Assembly: GCA_035702755.1 (NCBI GenBank)
Contig: DASSZQ010000331.1
Coordinates: 478-64,477, forward strand
Direction: 5' to 3'
DNA: 64,000 nt
Source: Solirubrobacteraceae bacterium
GTDB lineage: Bacteria > Actinomycetota > Thermoleophilia > Solirubrobacterales > Solirubrobacteraceae
In this document: positions 22,007 to 28,649 of the stretch, piece by piece
Position numbering within the stretch: the stretch's first letter is position 1
How the letters are laid out: each line of letters starts with the position of its first letter
The notes under the pieces: generated by a model
What the model was told of the DNA's origin: nothing
What the model saw: the letters and a program-made list of their open reading frames with translations, nothing else
Database searches by the model: none
Program-made: the position numbers and the translations under genes

Positions 22007-22714
22007 TCACGGCTGCAGGTAGGTCGTGATGTCGCGCTCCAGGGCCGCCGCCGAGGCGTAGGCGCCCGGGGACACGTGCACCACGCGGCCGGCGCGATCG
22101 ATGTAGATGGTGGTGGGCAGGCCGGCCAGCCGTCCCAGGCCCGGCAGGGCGGCGGTGAGCTCGTTCATGGGCGTCTGGTAGCTCGGAAACGCGGTCGCGG
22201 TGCGGGCCAGAAATGCGCGCGCGCGGCGGGTCGAATCGATCGTGTCCACGCCGAGGAAGGCCACCGCCGGGAACTCCCGCGTGACCGTTGCGTCCACGGC
22301 GTGCAGGTCCTCACCGCATGGCTGACACCAGGACGCCCACACCGTCACCACCACAGGGGAGCCGTGCAGCGAGCGCAGTCGTTGCGCGAGCTGGGGTTGC
22401 CCGCCCACCAGCCGGCTCGCCTGAGGTTGCCGGGCGGCGGGCGCGGGCGCGGCCGGCGGCTGTGGGCGGCGGGGATGGCCGAGCAGCGCCAGGAACGCGA
22501 CGGCCACGGCGCCCGCCGCCACCATCGCCAGGGTCGCGAGGGCGGTGCCGAGGGGCGGCCGGCGGCGCACGCGCAGCCCGGAGTGAGCCGCGCCGGACCG
22601 TCGTCCGGACACCTCGATGTCCTCGATGCGGTGCCAGACCGCGTCGATCGGTGGCGGCGGGCAGTCGCGCACGGGGTTGGCGGTCCGCAACCGCTCGATG
22701 ACGTCACTGCTCAT
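22007..22714 (-). CDS. Membrane-anchored TlpA/ResA-like thioredoxin-fold protein (candidate anti-sigma partner)
   Basis: 235 aa. The N-terminal cytoplasmic segment (VIERLRTANPV) is followed by one TM (ALATLAMVAAGAVAVAFLALLG) and a redoxin domain with VVVTVWASWCQPCGEDL (CxxC). Its start overlaps the ECF sigma stop (ATGA). Confidence 0.75.
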   Translation of the reverse strand: MSSDVIERLRTANPVRDCPPPPIDAVWHRIEDIEVSGRRSGAAHSGLRVRRRPPLGTALATLAMVAAGAVAVAFLALLGHPRRPQPPAAPAPAARQPQASRLVGGQPQLAQRLRSLHGSPVVVTVWASWCQPCGEDLHAVDATVTREFPAVAFLGVDTIDSTRRARAFLARTATAFPSYQTPMNELTAALPGLGRLAGLPTTIYIDRAGRVVHVSPGAYASAAALERDITTYLQP

Positions 22715-23214
22715 GAGGCCTCCTCGGCTCGAAACCCGCCCGGATGGCTCTCCATCCGGTCCTCGGCACGCCGCAGCACCGCCGCCAAACGCCGGCGGGC
22801 GCGATGCAGCCGGACCGCCACCGCGTTCTGCGAGCAGCCGAGCGCCCGTGCCGCCTGCGCCGGCTCAAGCCCCTCCCAGGCGATGAGCAACAGGAGCTCA
22901 CGGTCACGATCGCGCAGTTGCGACAGGGCCCACCCCAGCAGGGGATCGCCCTGTGGCGGGGGCGGGCCGGCCGCCGTCTCCAGGCGCTCGGCGAGAGCGG
23001 CATCACGCTGACGGCGGCGGTGCTGATGCGCCAGCACCAGCCGGGCGCAGCCCAGCAGCCACGGCAGCGCGGCCTCCGGCACGTCGTCCAGACGCCGCCA
23101 GGCGACGGCGAACACCTCGCTGACGGTGTCATCCGCGCTGACCGGGTCGATCCTCCGCCGCGCGTACGCCCGCACGGCGCCGGCGTGGGCGGCGAACAAC
23201 TGCTCAAGGCGCAT
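22711..23214 (-). CDS. ECF-type RNA polymerase sigma-70 factor
   Basis: From ATG 23214 it reads MRLEQLFAAHAGAVRAYARRRI...DDTVSEVFAVAWRRLDDVP (region 2) and ...RDRELLLLIAWEGLEPAQAARALGCSQNAVAVRLHRARRRL (region 4). Confidence 0.85.
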   Translation of the reverse strand: MRLEQLFAAHAGAVRAYARRRIDPVSADDTVSEVFAVAWRRLDDVPEAALPWLLGCARLVLAHQHRRRQRDAALAERLETAAGPPPPQGDPLLGWALSQLRDRDRELLLLIAWEGLEPAQAARALGCSQNAVAVRLHRARRRLAAVLRRAEDRMESHPGGFRAEEAS

Positions 23215-23305
23215 GCGGCGTTGGAGGTCGTCCACTGCCCCATAATGCCCGCCAACCCGCCGCGGATTACAGGCCCCCGGCAACGGCCTTCGCTACGTTC
23301 GAGCG

Positions 23306-23830
23306 ATGCCCAGCGCCCGGCGCAGCCCGGATTCCGACGCGCGCCGTCTCCCCCGCGAGGTCGTCGTCCAGCTGTTTCGACGACAGCCGCGCGAGCCGCT
23401 GCTGATGCTGCGGCGCGTGCCGGAGCGCGGCGGCTTCTGGCAGGGCGTCTCCGGGGCCCCGCTCCCGGGCGAGACCGACGCCGACGCCGCCGCCCGCGAG
23501 GTGCGCGAGGAGACCGGCTTTGATGTGACCGGCTCACTGTTTTCGCTGGGCATCGAGTATCGCCATGGCCTCGATCCCGCGCGCGCCGACCAGTGGCGGG
23601 AGCTGTTCGGCCCCGGCGTGCGCTCGGTCAGCGTCACCGCGTTCGCCGCCGAGATCCCTGATCGTGCGCCCGTGCTTGACCCCGCCGAGCACGACCGCTA
23701 CGCGTGGTGCTCGTTTGCAGCGGCTCGCGAACTGCTCGACTGGCCGATCGAGGCCGATGCCCGGGCCCGGCGGCGCGCCGTGCTGGACCGGCTGCGCGAC
23801 CGGCAGGACCTGTTTGCCGGAGCGGAATAG
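23306..23830 (+). CDS. NUDIX hydrolase
   Basis: 174 aa. The Nudix box is GVSGAPLPGETDADAAAREVREETGF. Confidence 0.8.
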   Translation: MPSARRSPDSDARRLPREVVVQLFRRQPREPLLMLRRVPERGGFWQGVSGAPLPGETDADAAAREVREETGFDVTGSLFSLGIEYRHGLDPARADQWRELFGPGVRSVSVTAFAAEIPDRAPVLDPAEHDRYAWCSFAAARELLDWPIEADARARRRAVLDRLRDRQDLFAGAE

Positions 23831-23842
23831 ACCGGCCGGCGG

Positions 23843-24643
23843 CTACGCCTCGTCGGGGACCGGCAGCGCGGACGCGACCCGGATCCCCGCGCTCGTGTGC
23901 TCGCCGCCGTCCATGTCGATCACATAGGCGTCATAGCCGGCCAGCGCCACGACAAGCTCGATCCCCCGCGGGCCGGCGACGGCGAGCGCGGTGGCCAGCG
24001 CGTCGGCCAGCGCCAGGCTGGGTCCCGTCACCGTGGCCGAGGCCGCGCGCGTTCGCGGCTGGCCGATCTTGGGGTCGATCAGATGAGCCCCGCGCTCATA
24101 GGACCCGGAGGTCGCCACCGCTGCGTCGGCCTCGATGATGCAGGCCAGCGCATCGCCTCGCCAGGGATGGCGGATGCCGATCCGCCACGCCGACTGCCCG
24201 GGGGGCTGCCCGTGGACGACGAGATCTCCGGCGGCGTTGACCATGGCGGCGAGAACCCCGGCCCCCACCAGCTCGGCGAGTGCCCGCTCCGCCGCCCACC
24301 CCTTGACCAGGCCCGTGGGATCGACACCCCCGGGCATCGCCCACGGGTCAAACCAGCCGGCGGACACCTCCTTGGCGTGCTCGCACAGTTCCAGGACCGC
24401 GGCGACGTCGGAGGGGAGCTCGGCGAGCGCCGCCTCGCCCCGGCGCAGCCGGCTGACCGGCGAGTCCGGGCGATAGGTGCTGAAGATGGCGTCGGCCTCA
24501 TGCAGGATCTGACAGGCGCGCGCCACAGCTGCCGCAGCCGCGGCGGCACCGAGGTCTCCCGGGTGCACGACGAACGACACCACCGTCCCCATCACCGGCT
24601 CGGCGTGACTGATCGGCGCGCCACCGGCGACGCCGGCGGTCAT
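23843..24643 (-). CDS. apbE: FAD:protein FMN transferase (ApbE family)
   Basis: 266 aa. VMGTVVSFVV...SRLRRGE...DPTGLVKGWAAERALAEL...AVATSGSYERG are typical ApbE blocks. Its start overlaps the upstream gene stop (ATGA). Confidence 0.85.
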   Translation of the reverse strand: MTAGVAGGAPISHAEPVMGTVVSFVVHPGDLGAAAAAAAVARACQILHEADAIFSTYRPDSPVSRLRRGEAALAELPSDVAAVLELCEHAKEVSAGWFDPWAMPGGVDPTGLVKGWAAERALAELVGAGVLAAMVNAAGDLVVHGQPPGQSAWRIGIRHPWRGDALACIIEADAAVATSGSYERGAHLIDPKIGQPRTRAASATVTGPSLALADALATALAVAGPRGIELVVALAGYDAYVIDMDGGEHTSAGIRVASALPVPDEA

Positions 24644-25164
24644 GCCACGTGCAGCTTGTCTAGCGCCGACTGAACCGAGAAGGCATACGCCTGGCTCGTG
24701 TAGCTCGCGCCGGAGATGCCGTTGATGTGGGCGCTCTGCGCCGAGAGCACCTGGGAGCGCAGCATGGGGATGACCTGCGCCGCCAGCTGCTGGGAGTACT
24801 GGTCGGCGGTCTGCAGGCGCTCGACGGCCACGCTCTGGATCTGCGTTCCGCGGACCGTGACGCGGACGGAGAGCACACCGTACCCGTACTGCTGGCTTGC
24901 GCCCACGGCGGTGCGGGGGAGCGCGACGAGCGGGACCGCGGAGCCGCCGGACGCCGAGGCCGGCGCCGGGGCGGCGGAGCTGGATCCGGAGGAGCCCGCG
25001 GGCGGCGCGGAGCCGTTTGCCGTCGCGGCGCCGTGGGCCTGGCGATCGGCGGTGGCGCGCGCCCCGGAGACCGGCATCAGCGTGGCCGGTGCCCCGATGT
25101 GGAGGCCGAGGACGGCGCCGAGGCCGGCCGCCGTGCCGGCCACGACAAATGGGGAGCGTCTCAT
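24640..25164 (-). CDS. Secreted/anchored FMN-binding domain protein (flavinylation substrate)
   Basis: 174 aa. An N-terminal hydrophobic segment and a Ser/Ala/Pro-rich linker precede an FMN_bind-like domain ending INGISGASYTSQAYAFSVQSAL, which contains the [S/T]GA[S/T] flavinylation motif. Confidence 0.8.
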   Translation of the reverse strand: MRRSPFVVAGTAAGLGAVLGLHIGAPATLMPVSGARATADRQAHGAATANGSAPPAGSSGSSSAAPAPASASGGSAVPLVALPRTAVGASQQYGYGVLSVRVTVRGTQIQSVAVERLQTADQYSQQLAAQVIPMLRSQVLSAQSAHINGISGASYTSQAYAFSVQSALDKLHVA

Positions 25165-25185
25165 GCGGGCCTGTCCAATTCGCCG

Positions 25186-26685
25186 TTACAGAGTGTAGGC
25201 CTCATGATGCACCGCCTCGGCGGGAACGCCCATGCTGCGCACGAGGGCGACGACGTGGTGCACAAACCCTTCACGGCCGCACAGGTACACGTCGCGCTCA
25301 AGGATCCCCGGGACCATGCGCTTGAGCGTCCGCGCATCGAATTGGACCGCGTCCCGCGCGCCGACGACCACGTGGAGCTTGCCGCCGCGCTGGCGCGTGA
25401 GCTCGGCGAGCTCCTCTGACAGGGCGGCGTCCTCGGCGCGGGAGACGCGCAGGATGACAATGGGCCGCGTCGACCGCGGCAGGTCCTCAAGCAGGCCGCG
25501 CATCGCCGTCACGCCGATCCCGCCCGCAATCAGCACGGCGCGCTCGCGACGACGGGCATCCGCGGTGAACGCCCCGTAGGGGCCCTCGATGATGACGCGG
25601 GTGCCCGGCTTGAGCAGCGCGAGACCGCCGGAATGATCGCCGAGGTTCTTGACCGTCAGCCGCAGATGCCGGGCCGTGGGCCGCGCCGACAGCGAATACG
25701 GATGGGCCTGCCACCAGATCCCGCGCTGCAGAAAGCGCCAGCACATGAACTGCCCGCCGGCGGCCGGCAGGCGGTCAAGCGCGCGGCCTTCGCACAGGAT
25801 CGACACCACGTCATTCGCCTCCGGGCGGACCTCCACGACGCGGGGACGGTGGCGCAGGGTGCGGTACACGGGAAACCCGAAGCGAAACACGATCACGACG
25901 CCGGCGGTCGCCGCCCACACGACCGACCACACCGCCTGGGTGACCGGGTGCTCGACGAACGAGGGTCCCAGGGCGATGACGTGGGAGAACGAGAGGGCGA
26001 GGGCCAGGTACATGGAGAGGTGAATCGTCCACCACGTTTCCCGCCGCAGACGGCGCCGGATGGCTCGGATCGAGACGATCCCGGCGGCGGCCATCAGTCC
26101 GAGCGCCACGGTCGCGGTCAGCACCCCGGGATACCCGCTGAGCAGCGAGCTGAGCTCATGTCCGACCCCGGTCTTCGCCGTCTGCGCGTAGCCGATCGTG
26201 ACAAACACGGCGTGCAGGCCGATCAACGTCAGCGGCCACGGCGACAACCACTTGTGCCAGCGCAGCAGGCCATCGAGGCCGAGCACCCGCTCGATCACCG
26301 GGATCCGCCCGGCGAGCAGCACCATGACCAACGCCAGGTACATGCCCACCAGGCCGGTGATGCTGCCGACAAACGTCGCCACGCCGCCCCGCGCCACCAG
26401 CTCGGCGTGCGTCTCGGCGGTGATCGCCAGCCCGGTGGTCGCGCCGAGCCCCAGCCCCACCACCACGAGCGCCACGTCCGGGACCCAGCGCCGACGCCGG
26501 CGGCCGTCCTCCGAGGGGGGGCCCTGCGGCTGGGCTCTCAGGCCTGAGAGCGGGTCAGCGGTCAGCGACACGGCGCGTCCATCATCATCATTCAACGCGG
26601 GGGAACCGAGCGTACGAGCACGCGGGCCTAAGCCGCCCATCCCTGGAGCATGGCGACAGCGTGGTGCCGGAGGCTCAAGCCACAC
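25186..26685 (-). CDS. NOX-like ferric reductase (transmembrane ferric-reductase domain fused to FAD- and NAD(P)-binding domains)
   Basis: A multi-helix N-terminal half with conserved His-containing helices is followed by HPYSLSA (RxYS-type FAD motif) and VLIAGGIGVTAM (NAD(P)-binding GGxGxxP-like). The start is uncertain: GTG 26685 or ATG 26640. Confidence 0.8.
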   Translation of the reverse strand: MWLEPPAPRCRHAPGMGGLGPRARTLGSPALNDDDGRAVSLTADPLSGLRAQPQGPPSEDGRRRRRWVPDVALVVVGLGLGATTGLAITAETHAELVARGGVATFVGSITGLVGMYLALVMVLLAGRIPVIERVLGLDGLLRWHKWLSPWPLTLIGLHAVFVTIGYAQTAKTGVGHELSSLLSGYPGVLTATVALGLMAAAGIVSIRAIRRRLRRETWWTIHLSMYLALALSFSHVIALGPSFVEHPVTQAVWSVVWAATAGVVIVFRFGFPVYRTLRHRPRVVEVRPEANDVVSILCEGRALDRLPAAGGQFMCWRFLQRGIWWQAHPYSLSARPTARHLRLTVKNLGDHSGGLALLKPGTRVIIEGPYGAFTADARRRERAVLIAGGIGVTAMRGLLEDLPRSTRPIVILRVSRAEDAALSEELAELTRQRGGKLHVVVGARDAVQFDARTLKRMVPGILERDVYLCGREGFVHHVVALVRSMGVPAEAVHHEAYTL

Positions 26686-26718
26686 TTAGGGATATATGAG
26701 GGGATGTATAGAACCGGC

Positions 26719-26738
26719 CTCGTCCGGCCGGGGACGAG
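26719..26738 (-). terminator. Stem-loop downstream of the glycine-rich protein gene
   Basis: CTCGTCC-GGCCGG-GGACGAG forms a 7-bp stem. It starts 7 nt past the stop at 26745 and is followed on the minus strand by an unusually AT-rich stretch (26686-26712). Confidence 0.45.
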
Positions 26739-26744
26739 CGGTCG

Positions 26745-28649
26745 CTACCGGCGCGTCCGGGCCGGCGCGGTCAGCGTCAGCGTGAAGCTGGCCACGGTTG
26801 CCCTCTGGCCGGCCGGCTGCTGGAGCGTCAGGGTGTCGTGGGTGACGAGCTTATGGAGCCGCGTGAGCAGATGCCTGCCCGGACGGTTCAACGCCACCCT
26901 GATCGTCTCTGTATGGCCCGGGGTGATCGCGTAGCGCGCGCGGCCGAGCATCAGCGTCCGCCGAGGCCGTCCCGTCTTGCCGGGCCGTTTGGCGCGGGCC
27001 CTCCCGGCGGTGTAGCCCAGCCTGATGCCTCCCGTACACGGCCGCCCGTCCGACGCGCACGCCAGCCTGACCCACACCGCCCCGGCGGCAAAGTGGGCGC
27101 TTCTGATGCTCAGCCGCGCGCTCCGGTCCGAGCCGGCCGGCGCCTGCACGACGGCCGTGGGGGCGGAGGCCAGCGGTGCGCTGGTGCCGTACGCGTTGGT
27201 GGCCGTCTCCTGCACCCGCAGCGTGGAGCCAATGTCGGCGGCGACCGGCGTGTACGTCTGGTTCACGGCACCGGCGATCGGTCGGCATGACCCGCCCGAG
27301 GCGTCGCAGCGCTCCCACGCGTCGGCGTAGCCGGTGATCGGCCCGCCACTCCACGGGGCATGGGTCTCGACGAGCAGGTGGCCCGGCGTGGCGGTGCCCG
27401 CGATCGTGGGCGGATCAATCGTCGTCGGCGCCGTGCCGCGGACCAGACCGGTGGCCGCCGAGACCGCGGCCGTGCTCGCCGGGCCGTAGAAGTTTGCCGC
27501 CGTCTCCTGCACCCGTAGCGTGTGGCCGATGTCGGCCGAGACCAGACGGTATGTCTGCCCGGTCGCGCCCCCAATCGCCGCACATGATCCCCCGCCGGCG
27601 TCGCAGCGCTCCCACTGGTAGGCGTACGCGGACAGCGGCAGGCTGCTTGACCATGGCGCGTGGCTCTCGGCCTGCACGTCGCCGACCGTCAACCCGCCGT
27701 CGGTCGTCGGCGGCGCCGCGACGGCGGGCACCGGCGCGGTGATCATCACCTCGGCCGGGTCGCTGCTGTCGGTCGCGATCTGCACGTTCTGCCCGCTCGG
27801 AGCGCCGCTTGAGCCACCGCCGCCGGCACCCGCATGCTGGGTGGCCACCCCTCCAGACCGGTAGCACTGCGCGCCGCCACCGCCGCCGGTGAGGCCGCCA
27901 CCGCCGCCGCCGCTGATCGGCGTCCCGGCGACGATGAACGCGCCGTTGCCGCCCGCCCCGGAGGTACCGGGGTCGCCGTGCTCGCCGTCGACGTCACCTG
28001 CGCCCTGGCAGTAGAAGGTGATCGTGGCCTGATCTGCCGCCAGCCCCCCGGCGACGGTGGCCGCGCCGGCGCCGCTGGCCAGCCCGACGCCCGCGTTGCC
28101 CGAGCCGTCGGGGTTGCCGGCGTCACCGCCGTTGGCGTTGAAGTCGCTGTTGCCACCGCCGCCACCACCCCCGCCGGCGACGGCGAGACGGGAGCTCAGT
28201 GAGTTCGGCTGGTCGTTGGCGACGGTCCGGATGTCCGATGCGCCACCGCCGCCGAACGGCCCGTTGCCGCCACCGTTGAAGCCGCCCGCCGCCGTGTACG
28301 GCACCGAGGGAGGACTGGCCGAGATGCCATCCCCGCCGACCTCAACGTACAGCGTCGTGATCCCCGCCGGTACCGGGATATCCCCGGTCAGCCGGGCACC
28401 ATGGCCCCCGGTGGCGTTCAGATCAGGGACGGTCTCAGAGGCTCCGGTGGCGCCGACAAGCACCACATGCAGGCCGGTGATCCCGGCGGGGACGGTGTAG
28501 GTCTGCTGGGCGCCGGTGTAGGTGAAGGTGTCCCCCAGCGCGGGTCCGGCGGCCACCACCCCCGACGCCGCCGACGCCGTCAGACCGGCAACCGTCACCC
28601 CCAGTACGGAGACTCCCCAGTTCCGCGTCGGCAGGGAGATGCGCAGCAC
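26745..28649 (-). CDS. Secreted glycine-rich domain protein with two tandem Ig-like repeats
   Basis: 634 aa. After a signal-like N-terminus comes FTYTGAQQTYTVPAGITGLHVVLVGATG...GGHGARLTGDIPVPAGITTLYVEVGGDG (glycine-rich domain family pattern) and long Gly runs. Two repeats of about 95 aa follow (...YAYQWERCDAGGGSCAAIGGATGQTYRLVSADIGHTLRVQETAANFYG / ...YADAWERCDASGGSCRPIAGAVNQTYTPVAADIGSTLRVQETATNAYG). The C-terminus is basic. Confidence 0.75.
   Translation of the reverse strand: MLRISLPTRNWGVSVLGVTVAGLTASAASGVVAAGPALGDTFTYTGAQQTYTVPAGITGLHVVLVGATGASETVPDLNATGGHGARLTGDIPVPAGITTLYVEVGGDGISASPPSVPYTAAGGFNGGGNGPFGGGGASDIRTVANDQPNSLSSRLAVAGGGGGGGGNSDFNANGGDAGNPDGSGNAGVGLASGAGAATVAGGLAADQATITFYCQGAGDVDGEHGDPGTSGAGGNGAFIVAGTPISGGGGGGLTGGGGGAQCYRSGGVATQHAGAGGGGSSGAPSGQNVQIATDSSDPAEVMITAPVPAVAAPPTTDGGLTVGDVQAESHAPWSSSLPLSAYAYQWERCDAGGGSCAAIGGATGQTYRLVSADIGHTLRVQETAANFYGPASTAAVSAATGLVRGTAPTTIDPPTIAGTATPGHLLVETHAPWSGGPITGYADAWERCDASGGSCRPIAGAVNQTYTPVAADIGSTLRVQETATNAYGTSAPLASAPTAVVQAPAGSDRSARLSIRSAHFAAGAVWVRLACASDGRPCTGGIRLGYTAGRARAKRPGKTGRPRRTLMLGRARYAITPGHTETIRVALNRPGRHLLTRLHKLVTHDTLTLQQPAGQRATVASFTLTLTAPARTRR
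27150..27716 (-). repeat. Coding tandem duplication (2 x about 95 aa Ig-like repeat) inside the glycine-rich protein gene
   Basis: The two repeat units aligned by eye share the W-ERCD-GGSC---G-Q-TY--V-ADIG-TLRVQETA-N-YG skeleton. Confidence 0.75.

Follow-up and report, generated by a model that had tools for sequence, protein, structure and literature searches.

A three-gene actinobacterial cassette that probably carries electrons from NAD(P)H to a membrane-tethered outer flavin domain

A 64,000-nucleotide (nt) stretch of DNA from a Solirubrobacteraceae bacterium (GenBank assembly GCA_035702755.1, contig DASSZQ010000331.1, positions 478 to 64,477 of the forward strand; G+C 72%), hereafter called the window, carries three adjacent minus-strand genes. 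They encode an NADPH oxidase (NOX)-type flavocytochrome b of 461 residues (25186-26571), a membrane-anchored protein of 174 residues with an FMN_bind domain for flavin mononucleotide (FMN) (24640-25164), and a compact, signal-less ApbE of 266 residues, a flavin adenine dinucleotide (FAD):protein FMN transferase (23843-24643). These genes probably constitute a self-contained cassette that moves electrons from NAD(P)H across the membrane to a tethered outer flavin domain. Such a path had been proposed in an earlier note on the same DNA, and our analysis supports it: the export-type N-terminus and the acceptor residue of the flavin carrier, as well as the four haem-ligating histidines of the membrane protein, on which the note had made the proposal depend, are all present. 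As a matter of annotation the locus is unremarkable: the class of NAD(P)H-driven electron exporters to which it belongs is widespread. Its interest rests on two questions, namely what the natural acceptor of bacterial NOX-type proteins is, a point left open by the authors of the structure of SpNOX, the Streptococcus pneumoniae enzyme, and how a signal-less ApbE matures a flavoprotein working outside the membrane. With only three genes and one FMN domain, this clean example is a convenient place to begin biochemical work on the class.

Direct reading of the gene junctions confirms the tight linkage described previously. The three open reading frames (ORFs), 25186-26685(-), 24640-25164(-) and 23843-24643(-), are present as noted, and their G+C contents at third codon positions, 0.87-0.92, are of coding type. 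The stop codon of the NOX-like gene is followed after 21 nt by the ATG of the FMN_bind gene (TAA cggcgaattggacaggcccgc ATG), and this spacer holds a Shine-Dalgarno-like GGACAGG. The stop of the FMN_bind gene and the start of the ApbE gene overlap in an ATGA, by which the latter gene is translationally coupled to the former. The span previously given for the NOX-like gene is that of the longest ORF, which exists, but its true start is probably the GTG at 26571, 38 codons inside this ORF, since the identical protein in the database starts there and has 461 residues, and the conserved N-termini of orthologues (MS[VL]T.DP) begin at the same codon. The Pfam check suggested in the note returned Ferric_reduct, FAD_binding_8, NAD_binding_1, FMN_bind and ApbE, all above the curated cut-offs.

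Judging from its sequence and predicted fold, the 461-residue protein is a bacterial NOX-type flavocytochrome with six transmembrane helices, two bis-His haem sites and cytosolic FAD and NAD(P)H lobes. It matches Ferric_reduct (4e-16), FAD_binding_8 (6.5e-6) and NAD_binding_1 (3.8e-5), the last of these being C-terminal, at residues 385-478 of the ORF product, with 24.7 bits for a cut-off of 22. In an alignment of 12 family members sharing 57-78% identity with the window protein (A1), the haem histidines H106-x13-H120 of the third and H184-x12-H197 of the fifth transmembrane helix are invariant (H144/H158/H222/H235 in the 499-residue numbering of the longest ORF), as the note had anticipated for the four ligands. 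The FAD motif HPYS(L) with its Tyr292, the nucleotide motif GIG(V/I)TA (GIGVTA, G351-A356, in the window protein and GIGITA in some orthologues) and an aromatic residue three positions from the C-terminus are invariant as well, and no flavinylation motif was found among the conserved columns of this alignment. When searched with phmmer against solved structures, the protein retrieved SpNOX (8qq7/8qt6, 4.4-5.2e-13), with a match running from the fifth transmembrane helix through the dehydrogenase domain, and 4eh1, a flavohaemoprotein FAD/NAD-binding domain (4.4e-13), over the dehydrogenase part only. An AlphaFold2 model built from the 12 sequences has a mean predicted local distance difference test score (pLDDT) of 64 and is better in the dehydrogenase half. 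It displays six long helices with short outer loops and one His pair each in helices three and five (residues 91-131 and 177-200). The best whole-chain fold match is SpNOX 8qt6 (E 2e-14, TM-scores 0.60/0.68, 438 columns), and the next full-length matches of NOX type are DUOX1, NOX5 and NOX2; high ranks are held as well by flavohaemoglobins and FNR-type reductases, though over the dehydrogenase half only (TM-scores 0.34-0.40). The filter for bacterial NOX proteins of Hajjar et al. (2017) asks for two His-X12/14-His motifs in separate transmembrane helices, an FAD motif H[PSA]F[TS][LIMV] and an NADPH motif. The window protein passes for the haem motifs and, with GIGVTA, for the NADPH motif, and fails for the FAD motif, which reads HPYSL. 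Thus, a protein with a NOX-like core would be missed by this screen because an invariant Tyr replaces Phe, a conservative change.

The association of the three genes extends far beyond the window. Relatives were collected by a pattern scan with one genome per species; synteny was counted in the best 80 loci, where a homologue was accepted at E <= 1e-5. This narrow search found a relative in the genomes of 552 species. In the order NOX-like, FMN_bind, ApbE, the FMN_bind gene is found in 76/80 loci and the ApbE gene in 69/80, and where a gene is missed, in most cases the contig ends there or the homologue falls below the cut-off; in three loci (L063, L066 and L071) ApbE is present without being directly downstream. 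The linkage of the triad is far beyond chance. Its order and orientation are kept in distant members of the phylum too, and the flanks vary. Indeed, the neighbourhood analysis that had been proposed earlier shows conservation within the triad only, none of the genes surrounding it in the window being conserved beside it in the 80 loci.

The flavin carrier is composed of an MRR n-region, a hydrophobic segment of about 17 residues (Kyte-Doolittle hydropathy 1.78), a linker of about 67 residues rich in Pro, Ser, Thr, Ala and Gly, and an FMN-binding domain (PF04205, 1.7e-5, 25.8 bits, cut-off 22). The basic n-region followed by a hydrophobic anchor corresponds to the export-type N-terminus inferred in the note, and this arrangement predicts an N-in, C-out orientation, with the FMN domain facing outside. 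The same N-terminal architecture is found in the 76 orthologues. The residues preceding their hydrophobic segment are KR in 41, RR in 22, KK in 2 and a single basic residue in 11; the segment has a median hydropathy of 1.98, and the linker a median length of 56 residues, with 77% P/S/T/A/G and only 0.4% Asp plus Glu. The closest solved relative is the second domain of SaFMN3 from Streptomyces azureus (SaFMN3-D2, PDB 8P2A, E 1.4e-10). Since the SGAT motif of this flavinylated domain aligns with SGAS at residues 151-154 of the window protein, within INGISGAS, Ser154 is the predicted flavinylation acceptor, in agreement with the modified Ser/Thr claimed before. Across the 76 orthologues the motif lies 24 residues from the C-terminus, as it does in the window protein, and reads SGAT in 65, SGAS in 8, TGAT in 2 and TGAS in 1, so that Thr is the usual acceptor. 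The eight with the Ser acceptor (SGAS; L013-L017, L026, L074 and the window) comprise seven that are the window's closest relatives and one, L026, from an Actinomycetota metagenome-assembled genome with 58% NOX-like identity; six of the close relatives, with SGAS, have 71-81% NOX-like identity. The replacement of Thr by Ser is largely clade-specific.

A search for longer relatives of the NOX-like protein found a single fusion, P0243, a JGI metagenome protein of 589 residues in which the whole NOX-like protein is joined to the anchor, linker and FMN_bind domain. The anchor sits after the cytosolic C-terminus of the dehydrogenase, with RR directly before it, which argues that the NOX-like and FMN_bind proteins act together and that the FMN domain is outside. 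P0243 is one sequence from one contig and may be a sequencing or gene-calling artefact, and we use it as support only.

The third product matches ApbE (PF02424, 2.2e-41, 142.6 bits) and aligns to solved ApbE/Ftp proteins in two blocks, lacking, in comparison with canonical ApbE, about 45 residues between the FD.. and KG(W/Y) motifs. In Vibrio cholerae ApbE the conserved active-site residues are Ser241, His257 and Asp285 (PMC12052999); Ser179, His187 and Asp214 of the window protein align with them and are invariant among 16 members of the subfamily (alignment A2). The AlphaFold2 model (pLDDT 88.5) has a TM-score of 0.84 to Treponema pallidum Ftp (4ifu) and of 0.72-0.84 to other ApbE/Ftp chains (6nxi, 7esa, 1vrm and others). 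From these alignments and the model, the enzyme looks catalytically competent.

Canonical ApbE is an exported lipoprotein, and its substrates are modified outside the membrane. In the window ApbE, however, we found no signal peptide, lipobox or hydrophobic stretch, and the conserved MGT motif starts already at residue 18. A signal peptide hidden behind an upstream start was considered and rejected, there being no in-frame ATG, GTG or TTG 5' of 24643; the open frame in this region is off-frame sequence of the FMN_bind gene, rich in Arg, Pro and Gly. No export signal was seen in the ApbE of the 69 orthologous loci or in 119/120 database homologues called by several pipelines. The 120 homologues have a median of 17 residues before MGT, a median length of 260 residues and essentially no hydrophobic window. 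Of eight distant cassettes elsewhere in the phylum, with NOX identities of 36-48% and a 9-Mb genome among their sources, seven have the signal-less form too, and in five of them its N-terminus was read directly. In every case the substrate paired with it has a domain that lies topologically outside. The earlier proposal that ApbE acts on the exported protein holds for the identity of the enzyme, but the usual scheme of extracytosolic flavinylation does not fit an ApbE without signal peptide or lipobox, which places the site of flavinylation in doubt. In the papers on flavinylation that we consulted we found no discussion of a signal-less ApbE, or of the order of flavinylation and export, in MsrQ-like systems.

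We tentatively suggest, as a possibility short of an even chance, that throughout this large actinobacterial family the compact ApbE attaches the flavin in the cytoplasm to an unfolded or Tat (twin-arginine translocation)-competent precursor of the FMN_bind protein, whose domain would be exported afterwards. Tags of seven residues suffice for flavinylation by ApbE and work best at protein termini (PMC12052999). Since the motif lies close to the C-terminus, flavinylation of an unfolded tail before post-translational export is conceivable. If true, flavinylation followed by export would remove the need for FAD export, and a bacterial NOX-type enzyme would gain a defined physiological acceptor, a protein-bound flavin instead of oxygen. 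Classical Tat export of a pre-flavinylated protein is not supported: KR is more frequent than RR in the orthologues (41 against 22), the N-terminus does not fit S/T-RRxFLK, and Tat-signal models gave no match even at E <= 10. TatC is present in the genome, and the protein may follow an atypical Tat route.

Several observations made in other loci concern the same enzymes. The genome of the window encodes four further ApbE paralogues of 320-338 residues with no evident signal peptide (C222:16391-18524, C335:229-1607, C323:570-2653 and C231:2926-8033; L001-L004, L009, L011 and L012). Two of them adjoin short MsrQ-like genes without a dehydrogenase domain, and each lies near small single-anchor ORFs of low complexity with no Pfam match at E < 0.01. 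The tails at or near the ends of these small ORFs resemble flavin tags (PVISGGS, PVTSGQS, VTTGASGAPP and PVTSRAS, each followed by the stop codon, and HATTGASGGSG, which continues). Only one PF04205 domain is present in the whole genome. In a 9.2-Mb actinobacterial genome with three NOX-like paralogues, one cassette (L095, G054:C1:1866000-1874000) consists of an FMN_bind protein that resembles SaFMN3 in having three SGAT motifs, followed by a signal-less ApbE of 266 residues.

From the domain content, cofactor-binding residues, folds, conserved triad and outward topology described above, we infer the electron path, its direction and a covalent bond of FMN with Ser154. NAD(P)H would reduce FAD in the cytosolic dehydrogenase domain of the 461-residue protein, and electrons would then cross the membrane singly, through an inner and then an outer b-type haem held by the four histidines. 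Owing to the short outer loops, the outer haem should be exposed, as it is in SpNOX and MsrQ, and could pass electrons to the FMN domain tethered outside by the N-terminal anchor and flexible linker. The FMN of this domain, which ApbE would install from FAD, is presumed to be phosphoester-linked to Ser154, and the reduced domain could hand its electrons to an acceptor in the wall or medium, for which the cassette has no gene. Whole SaFMN3 has a midpoint potential of -184 mV (PMC10339131), and transfer from NAD(P)H to FMN would therefore be downhill if the FMN domain of the window resembles SaFMN3. The outer haem of SpNOX is solvent-exposed and promiscuous, cytochrome c being reduced directly, and according to the authors of its structure, bacterial homologues may have a physiological acceptor other than oxygen (PMC11564096). 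The co-encoded flavoprotein is a natural candidate partner of the exposed outer haem.

Several points weigh against this electron-export reading. The usual scheme of extracytosolic flavinylation is at odds with an ApbE devoid of any export signal, and the flanks of the 80 loci and the 81 upstream regions revealed no acceptor or regulator. The acceptor in the clade of the window (8/76) is Ser, which ApbE accepts with lower efficiency than Thr (PMC12052999). The transmembrane part of the NOX-like model is of low confidence (pLDDT about 45-68), and no distances were taken from it. Furthermore, the class of systems is known from genomics alone, and everything beyond the identity of the domains is inference.

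Three hypotheses concern the terminal acceptor, and the evidence does not discriminate between iron, oxygen and an envelope enzyme. In the first, which specifies an acceptor within the electron-export reading, the cassette is an assimilatory ferric reductase whose tethered flavin reduces extracellular Fe(III) or ferric chelates for the uptake of Fe(II). The membrane domain does belong to the ferric-reductase superfamily, 153 MsrQ-like clusters are found with the VIT1 ferrous transporter and were proposed to serve iron assimilation (Méheust et al. 2021, PMC8238504), and in Bifidobacterium breve, also an actinobacterium, Tn5 insertions in apbE or in sifE, encoding an FMN-binding membrane protein, impair growth under iron chelation (PMC5449479). 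On the other hand, no iron transporter or siderophore gene is conserved beside the triad in the 80 loci, and the 81 upstream sequences hold no IdeR-type or Zur-type box (the Zur scan gave 3 weak matches). The neighbours in the window are a NUDIX hydrolase, a pair of an extracytoplasmic function (ECF) sigma factor and a TlpA-like protein, and a Gly-rich secreted protein, and ferric reduction by SpNOX is slow and was judged non-physiological (PMC11564096). An iron-reducing role remains rather doubtful.

It is unlikely that the protein is a true NADPH oxidase, in which the outer haem or the reduced flavin would produce extracellular superoxide or H2O2 for signalling or competition and the flavoprotein would be an O2-reactive tip or a modulator. 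Its closest solved relatives are indeed NOX enzymes, the filter of Hajjar et al. accepts its haem and NADPH motifs, and reduced SaFMN3 is reoxidised by O2 (PMC10339131). The FAD motif, however, is HPYS where the filter requires HPF[ST]. Moreover, an exposed haem reducing O2 would not need a dedicated, covalently flavinylated partner, the O2 site is undefined even in SpNOX (PMC11564096), and the cassette shows no evidence of genes handling reactive oxygen species.

The third hypothesis, modelled on MsrQ-MsrP, appears improbable as well. In it the cassette supplies reducing power to an enzyme of envelope repair or redox chemistry whose gene lies elsewhere (MsrP-like, thiol-disulfide or cofactor-maturation), with the flavin domain acting as a swinging arm. 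The membrane domain is homologous to MsrQ, the stop of the ApbE gene is followed after about 560 nt by the ECF sigma/TlpA-like redoxin pair, and in a clade of 17 loci the triad has PspA/HtpX-type envelope-stress genes on one side and CtaG/Fe-S carrier genes on the other. These neighbours are not kept across the family, however, no MsrP-type molybdoenzyme is adjacent, and the synteny is probably a clade-specific housekeeping context.

That the FMN_bind domain stays in the cytoplasm, modified there by the signal-less ApbE and working on the inner side of the membrane, is very improbable: the missing export signal of ApbE across the family and a linker with Arg, Lys and His but almost no Asp or Glu, whose positive charge disfavours Sec translocation, speak for it, but the basic n-region predicts N-in, C-out, the domain of P0243 must cross outward from the cytosolic dehydrogenase C-terminus, the membrane protein already owns a cytosolic FAD/NAD(P)H input, and SaFMN3, the nearest homologue to have been characterised, is itself predicted to sit outside the cell on an anchor.

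The surroundings of the cassette were examined in the window and in the relatives. With the NOX-like start at 26571, the intergenic region 5' of the operon, the presumed promoter region, therefore spans 173 nt (26572-26744, minus strand), from the stop of the upstream gene (26745) to the inferred start. No match to the sigma-70 consensus was found in these 173 nt, nor was there a terminator of note. Consensus scans for IdeR, Rex, Zur and SoxR over 81 upstream regions (the window and 80 orthologous) yielded 0, 0, 3 and 1 weak matches, respectively, and thus no recognised operator box. The gene just 5' of the operon, 26745-28649(-), encodes a Gly-rich secreted protein of 634 residues that matches the ALK/LTK glycine-rich domain (PF12810, E 5.9e-13) and, more weakly, Ig-like domains (AIR9 A9 and SCAB-Ig); it is not kept beside the cassette in relatives. 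On the other side, a NUDIX hydrolase gene (23306-23830, plus strand) is convergent with the ApbE gene, their stops being 12 nt apart, and beyond it 22007-23283(-) encodes the ECF sigma factor (Sigma70_r2/r4) and then the membrane-anchored AhpC-TSA/Redoxin (TlpA-like) protein. Other neighbours in the window include a methyltransferase and an HxlR regulator. All-against-all clustering of the flanks of the 80 loci, which could have revealed a conserved partner gene pointing to the acceptor, gave clade-specific synteny only: in about 17 loci this comprises PspA, PspAA/AB, an M48 peptidase, an A-type Fe-S carrier, PfkB and CtaG. A NOX-like match at E <= 1e-40 occurs in 17/301 genomes (about 5%) when 300 evenly sampled genomes from the phylum are taken together with the present one. 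Large genomes have two or three copies, and the two other sampled genomes of the same genus, both complete (G045 and G145), have no such match. The cassette thus appears patchy and accessory, including within the genus.

Like the window protein, SpNOX (PDB 8QQ7 and 8QT6; Hajjar 2017, Dubach 2024, Petit-Hartlein 2024) is a single chain combining a six-helix, two-haem membrane domain with FAD and NAD(P)H domains, with short outer loops and bis-His ligation in transmembrane helices three and five. The two share about 18% identity over the fold alignment, and HPFS of SpNOX corresponds to HPYS here. SpNOX has no genetically linked acceptor, whereas the family of the window co-encodes a flavin partner and its maturase. 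In the Escherichia coli MsrQ-MsrP system with Fre, a haem protein of the ferric-reductase domain family likewise sends electrons outward, to a periplasmic redox partner that is soluble or tethered, but MsrQ has no fused dehydrogenase, takes its electrons from quinol or Fre, serves a molybdoenzyme in place of a flavinylated FMN_bind domain and involves no ApbE. SaFMN3 and the NqrC/RnfG-type domains share with the window carrier the FMN_bind fold family and the [ST]GA[ST] phosphoester flavinylation motif. SaFMN3, whose D2 is covalently flavinylated, is also membrane-anchored, and its gene adjoins apbE; it has three domains and a Thr acceptor, whereas the window carrier has one domain and Ser. 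NqrC and RnfG belong to ion-pumping complexes, of which there are none here. Klebsiella pneumoniae ApbE2 resembles the window ApbE in having no signal peptide, but its substrate is a soluble cytoplasmic fumarate reductase, known cytosolic ApbEs serving cytosolic enzymes (PMC12052999), whereas the only co-encoded substrate in the window is extracytoplasmic.

The closest counterpart is the class of MsrQ-like flavinylation clusters, of which Méheust et al. (2021, eLife 10:e66878, PMC8238504) catalogued 1,797, mostly in Actinobacteria, where they call them "broadly conserved in Actinobacteria". They were defined by a PF01794 gene that has ApbE or FMN_bind no more than five genes away, with a SignalP 5 signal or lipidation site on at least one of ApbE and FMN_bind; typical partners are apbE and an FMN-binding gene. 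In the window the three genes are adjacent. The earlier note had singled out the membrane module for carrying its own dehydrogenase domains; these are present, but this is already the majority form, since 1,437 of the 1,797 clusters have a C-terminal PF00175 NAD-binding domain, like the window protein, and were proposed to use NAD(P)H (PMC8238504). A follow-up paper (Huang et al. 2024, mSystems) modelled the haem sites of MsrQ-like proteins and contains no experiment with members of the class. The window thus shares the majority architecture of a PF01794 cytochrome with PF00175, FMN_bind and apbE, as well as the proposed function, and it displays no categorical difference; the acceptor in its clade is Ser in place of Thr. 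On the basis of its gene and domain content, the locus is a further member of the MsrQ-like class already catalogued from genomes.

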